Shown: positions 62,433-63,569, numbered from the stretch's first letter. The stretch is DNA of 64,000 nt from an uncultured Spirochaetaceae bacterium (GCA_964537725.1 CAZICD010000001.1:63878-127877), one strand, 5' to 3'. Notes: generated by a model not told the origin, from the letters alone. Numbers and translations: made by a program.

Positions 62433-63569
62433 TCACACGAAGCTGAGATCCTCGGGCCCGATCGTCTCCGACCTCGCGTCGGCGAGCGCCCTCCAGACGA
62501 CGTTGCGCAGCTCGCGCACGTTGCCGGGCCAGTCGTACGCGGAAAGCCGCTCGAGCGCGTTTGCGCCGAACCGCCGCGCGCGCGACTGAACGCCGGCGTC
62601 TGCGAGCGTGCGCAGGAAGTGCGCCGCGAGCAAGGGAACGTCGTCGCGCCGGGCGCGAAGCGGCGGGATGGAGATCCGGAAGACGTCGATCCGGTAGAAG
62701 AGGTCCTCGCGGAACCGCCCCTCGTTCATGAGCGCCCGCAGGTTGCGGTTGGTCGCGACGACGATGCGCGCCGTCGTGCGGCGAGCGGTCGACCCGCCCA
62801 CCCGGTAGTAGACGCCGGTCTCGAGCACGCGGAGCAGCTTCACCTGCGCAGACTGGCTCAACTCCCCGATCTCGTCGAGAAAGAGCGTACCGGCGTTGGC
62901 CAGCTCGAACGCCCCGGGACGCGTGATGGCGTCGGTGAACGCCCCGCGTTCGGTCCCGAAGAGCTCGGCCTCCACGAGCGTGTCCGGCAGCGCGCCGCAG
63001 TTGCGCGCCTCGAACCGGCCGGAGGCCTCGGGGGCACGGTCGTGCAGCGCACGGGCGACGAGTTCCTTACCCACACCGCTCTCGCCGGCAACGATGACCG
63101 GACCGGTTGTACGCGCGAACCGGCTCACATCGGCGCGCAGACGGACGATTGCGTCGCTCGCTCCCACGATTTCGGGTAACGACGCGGGCGCCGGCGGGGC
63201 GGCACGCAGCTCCTGTCGCGCGAGCGCGCGCGTGACGGCGAGCTGAAGGTCGCGCATCCGGATGGGATGGGTGACGACGTCGCACGCGCCGAGCTGCACG
63301 GCGTCCACCACGCTTCGGAGCTCGAGCCGGTCGAGCAGCGCGACCACCGGGGCGCTGTCTGCACGGTTGCGCATTCGTCCGAGCAAATCCAGCGCGCGGG
63401 GCTCCCCTGCTTCGAGGTTGAGGAAGACGACGTCGGGCGAGTGGTCGCGCACGTAGTCGACGCCGAGGATGGGATGCTCGTAGTGGTCGACGTGATGATC
63501 AGGGCCGAGCAGGTGCTTGATCACCCGGAACGACGCCTTGCTCTCATCGACTACTACGAGCCTCGCCAC
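62433..63569 (-). CDS. Sigma-54-dependent AAA+ activator with pseudo-receiver and no DNA-binding domain
   Basis: Walker A GESGVGKE, GAFTDA loop, Walker B LFLDEIGEL, RFREDLFYRI and GNVRELRN. The protein ends 23 aa after GNVRELRN. The receiver acceptor position reads N (DVVFLNLE). GTG 63569 follows GGAG at 7 nt. Confidence 0.85.
   Translation of the reverse strand: MARLVVVDESKASFRVIKHLLGPDHHVDHYEHPILGVDYVRDHSPDVVFLNLEAGEPRALDLLGRMRNRADSAPVVALLDRLELRSVVDAVQLGACDVVTHPIRMRDLQLAVTRALARQELRAAPPAPASLPEIVGASDAIVRLRADVSRFARTTGPVIVAGESGVGKELVARALHDRAPEASGRFEARNCGALPDTLVEAELFGTERGAFTDAITRPGAFELANAGTLFLDEIGELSQSAQVKLLRVLETGVYYRVGGSTARRTTARIVVATNRNLRALMNEGRFREDLFYRIDVFRISIPPLRARRDDVPLLAAHFLRTLADAGVQSRARRFGANALERLSAYDWPGNVRELRNVVWRALADARSETIGPEDLSFV

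Follow-up and report, generated by a model that had tools for sequence, protein, structure and literature searches.

An AAA+ core of the sigma-54 activator type, joined to a receiver that has lost its phosphorylation switch and followed by no DNA-binding domain, is encoded by the gene at 62433-63569, on the (-) strand of a 64-kb stretch of DNA from an uncultured spirochaete (hereafter the window, meaning the whole stretch analysed). We consider this protein, hereafter the bEBP, to be probably (at roughly 60%) a sigma-54 activator that works without an enhancer, of the FlgR/CtcC type (type Ic), whose receiver has turned into a pseudo-receiver. A sequence-only reading of the same DNA had already proposed an activator working from solution and controlled by something other than phosphorylation. 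Given that the protein has neither a DNA-binding domain nor a phosphorylatable receiver, and that both losses are conserved under purifying selection, this is the best reading; that the protein depends on sigma-54, that it works from solution and what its pseudo-receiver does are inferred. Activators without an HTH are a recognised class, type Ic making up ~4% of EBPs (Francke; PMC3162934), and pseudo-receivers are common, FleQ being a sigma-54 activator that has one (PMC12632262). Each trait is therefore already known; we found in the literature no description of a conserved EBP family combining the two. The features of the locus are as follows.

62433..63569, (-): HTH-less bEBP with pseudo-receiver, complete coding sequence of 378 aa, GTG start, stop codon at 62433-62435
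63204..63569, (-): pseudo-receiver, residues 1-122, (beta-alpha)5 fold (Pfam, NtrC1 alignment, AF2)
63156..63203, (-): Pro-rich flexible linker, residues 123-138, AAPPAPASLPEIVGAS (pLDDT 59, poor conservation)
62673..63170, (-): sigma-54-interaction AAA+ domain, residues 134-299 (Pfam PF00158, Foldseek)
62928..62945, (-): L1 loop GAFTDA, residues 209-214, sigma-54-contacting motif (family alignment)
62442..62657, (-): AAA+ lid with sensor II GNVRELRN, residues 305-376 (Pfam PF25601, AAA_lid_14)
63589..63617, (-): predicted sigma-70-type promoter of the bEBP gene, TTGACG-17-TACAAT (site scan)
61720-61748: predicted sigma-70 promoter of the STAS-YbjN-PspA operon, near-consensus TTGACA-17-TACTAT, upstream of the STAS gene

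The GTG start is preceded by GGAG at a distance of 8 nt, and sigma-70-type sites like the predicted bEBP promoter occurred 4 times in the region, versus 0.3 expected. A conserved in-frame peptide upstream of the start (..IVWRFF..), included in some database entries, was rejected as coding since it shares bases with the -10 box and with the Shine-Dalgarno sequence, and since most homologues begin at MAR. Within the protein, Response_reg (PF00072) matches residues 5-112 with 34.6 bits, only just over its cut-off of 30.2, and the match to Sigma54_activat (PF00158) covers positions 1-167 of 168 with 194.5 bits. Walker A (GESGVGKE), Walker B (LFLDE, within LFLDEIGEL), sensor I (ATN), the arginine fingers (RFREDLFYR) and sensor II (GNVRELRN) are all present, the four of these motifs that had been read from the sequence each being located in the 378-aa protein. 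The AF2 model, built from 52 aligned sequences (mean pLDDT 88), predicts a receiver fold from beta1 to alpha5, a disordered Pro-rich linker and a complete AAA+ module; the linker is its block of lowest pLDDT and has no secondary structure. In Foldseek searches, this model matched Aquifex NtrC1 (1NY5) first, then NtrX, LuxO, FleQ and NtrC4, and its AAA+ domain superimposed on those of FleQ and NtrC1 with a TM score of ~0.9 and an rmsd of ~1.5 Å.

The protein stops 2 residues past the Pfam match to the lid, and it has no Pfam match to HTH_8 (PF02954). The absence of a Fis-type HTH, and the early end on which that observation was based, are both borne out, with the correction that 22 aa follow GNVRELRN, the earlier figure of 23 having counted the stop codon. 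Homologues share the start and end residues of the bEBP: in our alignment A1, family members end at the same position, the 3 exceptions carrying short tails without an HTH_8 match. It had been envisaged that a frameshift might conceal an HTH further downstream. The stop of the convergent gene at 61906-62424 lies only 8 nt from the bEBP stop codon, leaving no room for a frameshifted HTH, and this gene is conserved; together with the shared C-terminus of the family, it excludes a hidden domain. Databases annotate members of this kind as 'sigma-54-dependent (Fis family) transcriptional regulator' or as 'DNA-binding NtrC family response regulator', names whose DNA-binding part is wrong.

This architecture is that of a family. 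A search covering 5.8 billion proteins gave ~100 clusters of HTH-less homologues of ~375 aa, from independent assemblies; all organisms named by the sources are uncultured and given as 'Spirochaetota' or 'Spirochaetales bacterium'. Two groups were distinguished, which share one syntenic locus. In group A (~60 clusters) the receiver is canonical (DDD...LLDINLPD...T...K) and the loop reads GAFTDA or GAYTDA in most cases, and group B, the clade of the window protein (34 aligned sequences, 46-96% identical to it), is missing the phospho-switch. In an NJ tree computed on the AAA+ domain alone, the HTH-less family forms one clade relative to three HTH-bearing outgroups, and group B is monophyletic, sister to the Asp/Thr/Lys group A. 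Inside group A, the sequence P0040 represents one independent loss of the Asp. By this tree, the pseudo-receiver of the window arose independently, within a spirochaete family. It is also of a narrow type, since a phmmer search with the receiver only, against 1.84 billion representatives, returned ~5 close clusters and then generic receivers. A further scan of contigs with the family alignment returned 80 loci with generic EBPs of 33-47% identity, the patterns used (GESGVGK, GTLFLDEIG) fitting any EBP, and STAS/PspA synteny was seen in none of these 80 loci.

Comparison with the orthologue of the related locus L001 (83% identity) gave dN/dS values of 0.10 (receiver) and 0.17 (AAA+ domain), with dS at ~0.65, and all values obtained for the bEBP span 0.10-0.33. 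The gene is thus intact and under purifying selection, neither frameshifted nor decaying. No result supports the opposite view, that of a decaying gene or an assembly artefact whose HTH was lost by frameshift and whose receiver is mutating away, although the Pfam score of the receiver is low. The comparative data have already refuted it: independent assemblies yielded ~100 clusters with the same architecture and the same end residue, a conserved convergent gene adjoins the stop codon, the AF2 model is confident, and dN/dS is low. Moreover, the HTH-less form is kept across the family and the loss of the Asp defines a whole clade, so that the idea of a single degenerate copy, raised earlier, has to be given up.

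We examined the receiver by alignment to NtrC1 (PDB 1NY5) and to homologues with canonical receivers. Asn51 (63417-63419) occupies the phospho-Asp position, Leu79 that of the beta4 Thr, His101 that of the Lys, and Val98 that of the beta5 switch Tyr/Phe, which agrees with the Asn at the NtrC D54 position and the L/H at the T/K positions noted at first sight. The acidic pocket survives in part (Asp8, Glu9). Across group B, the Asp is missing in 33 of the 34 members, the position being filled by N (19), S (7), K (2), R (2) or, once each, A, G, E and D; Thr and Lys are retained in just one member. It had been asked whether the Asn is conserved among homologues: the Asn itself is not, with 19 of 34 clade members having it, and the loss of the Asp is. 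The active-site loops are the least conserved part of the group B protein (top-residue frequency 0.37-0.51), compared with 0.71 for alpha4, 0.79 for beta5, 0.69 for alpha5 and 0.75 for the AAA+ core. The alpha4-beta5-alpha5 face serves dimerisation in the NtrC family (PMC12632262). Variable loops next to a conserved face suggest that the active site has been freed from constraint, and that an interaction surface has been kept. No kinase gene was found in the syntenic block of the relatives, and the sole one found in the window encodes a PAS-HisKA_2 histidine kinase (13190-14353), ~48 kb from the bEBP gene.

The L1 loop was correctly read as GAFTDA (residues 209-214, nt 62928-62945), and it is less singular than it had been taken to be. 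All family members have ELFG-x3-GA[FY]T[DG][AS], in which F/Y and T are invariant (52 aligned sequences) and the fifth loop position is D or G. Asp is found at this position in the sister clade, and in 5 of the 77 unrelated EBPs (~6%) obtained as by-catch of the contig scan. Two EBPs of D. vulgaris, DVU2106 (GAFTDA) and DVU2275 (GAYTDA), have been assigned sigma-54 regulons by Kazakov et al., who deem such loop variants compatible with activation (PMC4641369). GAFTDA is therefore a recurrent variant, too common to carry weight.

A search for sigma-54 itself and for its promoters gave little. No rpoN gene was found in the 64-kb window or in 87 loci, using a regular expression for the RpoN box on six-frame translations. 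Sites resembling TGGCAC-N5-TTGC, searched by consensus with mismatches, were not enriched in the window (29 observed, 37.6 expected), and the window and seven related loci showed no convincing -24/-12 promoter. Consensus and weighted scans upstream of the PspA operon, the small convergent ORF, fxsA and the bEBP gene were equally negative. The best, and only good, intergenic -24/-12-like element of the window lies elsewhere, at 59150-59165 (-), CGGCACGGCTGATGCA, and begins one base past the stop codon of the OmpR-like gene described below. At the matching place, L001 has TGGCACGCGTGATGCA (14408-14423, +), and L003, L004, L006 and L007 have no such element. No gene is found downstream of it on its strand, as ybjQ converges on it, and it is probably fortuitous, or else the driver of a non-coding transcript.

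Spirochaetes carry sigma-54 plus 1-2 activators (PMC3162934). Our literature search for spirochaete EBPs devoid of a DNA-binding domain turned up nothing specific, the discussion being limited to Rrp2-type proteins. Since neither rpoN nor a -24/-12 site was found locally, the proposed dependence on sigma-54 rests on homology, on the invariant F/Y-T of the loop and on the published occurrence of sigma-54 in spirochaetes. The same local absence would also be expected of an AAA+ protein that acts independently of sigma-54, by remodelling another partner, or by a sigma-70-linked regulation as for TyrR, NtrX and VpsR; and the Dickeya protein VfmH, which has GAFTDA, gave no detectable sigma-54 interaction (PMC10714721). 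We nevertheless find this distinctly unlikely, as F/Y-T does not vary in the bEBP loop and a DNA-binding domain is missing. Sigma-54-independent relatives of EBPs typically show the reverse, loss of the GAFTGA loop and retention of the DNA-binding domain.

Another possibility is that the bEBP acts as a co-activator subunit, entering mixed rings together with another EBP that does bind DNA, and shifting the promoter choice of that EBP, as FleT does. FleT of Cereibacter sphaeroides shows that EBPs devoid of a DNA-binding domain have a precedent (PMC3162934), and the conserved alpha4-beta5-alpha5 face could mediate hetero-association. However, neither the window nor the syntenic loci showed a second EBP, and spirochaetes usually have only 1-2 of them (PMC3162934). 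We consider this reading unlikely.

The surroundings of the gene are well conserved. A collinear block is found in five relatives, from both groups, whose bEBP identities range from 83% to 40%. Its order is FapA, ParA-like, small ORF, CtpB, RsmE, WecG, FxsA (divergent), bEBP, and then a small secreted ORF (convergent), STAS-Zn-ribbon, YbjN-like, PspA and an OmpR-like winged-helix protein; the gene for the ParA-like ATPase lies ~4-6 kb from that of the bEBP. Between the bEBP and the PspA operon, relatives have 1-3 genes, the convergent ORF being there in all of them, with an additional SDR gene in L004, and an SpoU methylase gene plus another ORF in L006. Collinearity extends over ~20 kb, from FapA to LptFG. 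The linkage between the bEBP and PspA is real; it is also unspecific, given the ~20 kb of collinearity and the genes inserted in L004 and L006.

The bEBP gene had been thought to sit where PspF sits in enterobacteria, next to the PspA operon. Taken further, this would make it a PspF analogue, the dedicated activator of the STAS-YbjN-PspA operon, possibly restrained by PspA as in enterobacteria. The two are indeed linked in every relative examined, down to ~40% identity. Against this, the near-consensus sigma-70 promoter upstream of the STAS gene is conserved in 6 of 6 loci, and no GG-N10-GC (-24/-12) element was found at the operon promoter by consensus and weighted scans, as had been remarked from the sequence. 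The small convergent ORF and the bEBP gene likewise have predicted promoters of the sigma-70 type. Besides, 1-3 unrelated genes intervene, and collinearity over ~20 kb deprives the linkage of its specificity. The PspF equivalog models also score well below their cut-offs on the bEBP (TIGR02974, 240.6 bits for 443.55; NF008622, 198 for 529). Finally, our own alignment places an Ala at what we take to be the position of PspF's PspA-binding Trp56. The comparison with the position of PspF is thus not retained, and a PspF-like role is in our opinion very improbable.

Several neighbours deserve mention in themselves. The STAS protein with a C-terminal zinc ribbon (61112-61663, -) is anti-sigma-antagonist-like and heads the operon, with YbjN/CesT-like and PspA. 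It is much more conserved than its neighbours: 100% identical in L001 (bEBP 83%), 97% in L003 (bEBP 57%) and 79% in L006 and L007 (bEBP 40-44%). The last gene of the operon (59167-59802, -) encodes an OmpR-type winged-helix protein (Trans_reg_C) with a receiver remnant at its N-terminus, which has no Response_reg match, shows Gly, Gly/Ser and Glu at the Asp, Thr and Lys positions, and is conserved among relatives in its beta4-alpha5 part only. It represents a second phosphorylation-independent regulator of the same block. The small convergent ORF (61906-62424, +) has, from an internal ATG, a signal-peptide-like N-terminus, MKKLAFVVLVAALLTLVATPGISQ, no Pfam or NCBIfam match, and a predicted sigma-70-type promoter of its own (61872-61901); it adjoins the bEBP gene in all relatives, with 29-85% identity.

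One may imagine that the pseudo-receiver is a dock for these co-encoded envelope-stress proteins (STAS-Zn-ribbon, YbjN-like, PspA, OmpR-like), so that a stress-dependent partner switch would release the activator, or recruit it, to distant sigma-54 promoters; DNA binding might even come in trans from the winged-helix protein. If true, this would be a phosphorylation-free, split Psp-type response in spirochaetes. We regard this as a long shot.

Next to the OmpR-like gene, a 283-bp intergenic region (58884-59166) contains the only two exact DnaA boxes of the 64-kb window, TTATCCACA, at 58902 and 59127, where 0.05 were expected. Counterparts of this region are found in L001 (14407-14700), L003 (14170-14440) and L004 (13292-13596). 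In both L001 and L003 this pair recurs as the sole exact one, oriented as in the window and with a spacing of 222-225 bp; L004 retains a single box. Between the boxes lie conserved blocks, CTATACAGGTTT, GTTGACA and a CTGAAAC/GTTTCAG hairpin. No dnaA gene was found nearby, the GC-skew profile shows no switch at the element, and an Rfam search of the window gave no match. Beside it, a cassette encoding an ECF sigma factor, a putative anti-sigma and YbjQ (57549-58883, +) is present in the window, L003 and L004 and absent from L001 and L002, which represent the nearest relative having a long contig, and is a recent insertion or deletion. At the far end of the window (2-11527), three genes relating to nucleotide second messengers were noted, with unrelated genes interspersed; their products are a diguanylate cyclase (PAS-GAF-GGDEF), an adenylate/guanylate cyclase with CHASE2, and a cyclase that has a 2TM domain.

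Returning to the solution-acting activator, we propose that the bEBP, transcribed from its own predicted sigma-70 promoter and with no kinase partner nearby, would assemble into an ATP-hydrolysing ring. This ring would touch the sigma-54 holoenzyme from solution through its GAFTDA L1 loop, as FlgR and CtcC do, and would thereby open -24/-12 promoters located elsewhere in the genome. The N-terminal domain would derive from a phosphorylatable receiver, of the kind still intact at the same locus in the sister clade. Because the Asp/Thr/Tyr/Lys switch is lost and the alpha4-beta5-alpha5 face is kept, the pseudo-receiver probably controls or stabilises oligomerisation by means of protein-protein contacts, of a partner or of a ligand, and not by phosphorylation.

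At one locus, the members of the family line up as a natural series, from the canonical Asp/Thr/Lys receiver, through sequences in which only the Asp is lost (P0040, P0035), to the loss of the whole switch. Such a series could show how the control of AAA+ ring assembly by the receiver is rewired once phosphorylation is lost, a question flagged as open for pseudo-receivers in a 2025 review. The family also opens a way into the sigma-54 regulation of a spirochaete lineage that is deep and uncultured.

Among known systems, Aquifex aeolicus NtrC1 (1NY5, 1NY6) is the closest in solved sequence and structure (E = 4e-72 in a PDB search). The two AAA+ domains are 46% identical in the Foldseek alignment and have the Walker A GESGVGKE in common. 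NtrC1, however, has Asp54, an HTH, and a helical coiled-coil linker that holds its dimer in the off state, whereas the bEBP has a Pro-rich linker with 5 residues fewer, for which disorder is predicted. PspF of E. coli resembles the bEBP by its sigma-54 AAA+ core and by the proximity of its gene to pspA. Yet PspF lacks an N-terminal domain, carries an HTH and is subject to inhibition by PspA, and its gene is transcribed divergently from a pspA promoter of the sigma-54 type; nothing of this applies to the bEBP.

FleT (Cereibacter/Rhodobacter sphaeroides) shares with the bEBP the lack of both a DNA-binding domain and phosphorylation control; it is devoid of any N-terminal domain and partners FleQ, whereas the bEBP keeps a conserved receiver fold. 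Like the bEBP, FleQ/FlrA (Pseudomonas, Vibrio) combine an aspartate-less pseudo-receiver with a sigma-54 AAA+ core. FleQ is an enhancer-binding protein with an HTH at its C-terminus, under the control of FleN and c-di-GMP. No HTH is detected by Pfam in the bEBP, and Foldseek aligned FleQ to its model with a TM score of ~0.62 over the full length and 0.92 over the AAA+ domain. The receiver-like domain of FleQ mediates dimerisation (PMC12632262).

The nearest relatives in architecture are FlgR of Helicobacter pylori and CtcC of Chlamydia trachomatis, which, like the bEBP, consist of a receiver and an AAA+ domain and end right after the lid; for them as for the bEBP, action on E-sigma54 from solution is presumed. 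The bEBP is not an orthologue of FlgR, the Campylobacter FlgR model giving 212 bits for a cut-off of 750. The receivers of FlgR and CtcC can be phosphorylated, and the two proteins have their cognate kinases, FlgS and CtcB, whereas the bEBP lacks the Asp/Thr/Tyr/Lys set and has no linked kinase gene. The FlgR/CtcC type is fully matched by the sister clade, with its Asp, Thr and Lys in place.
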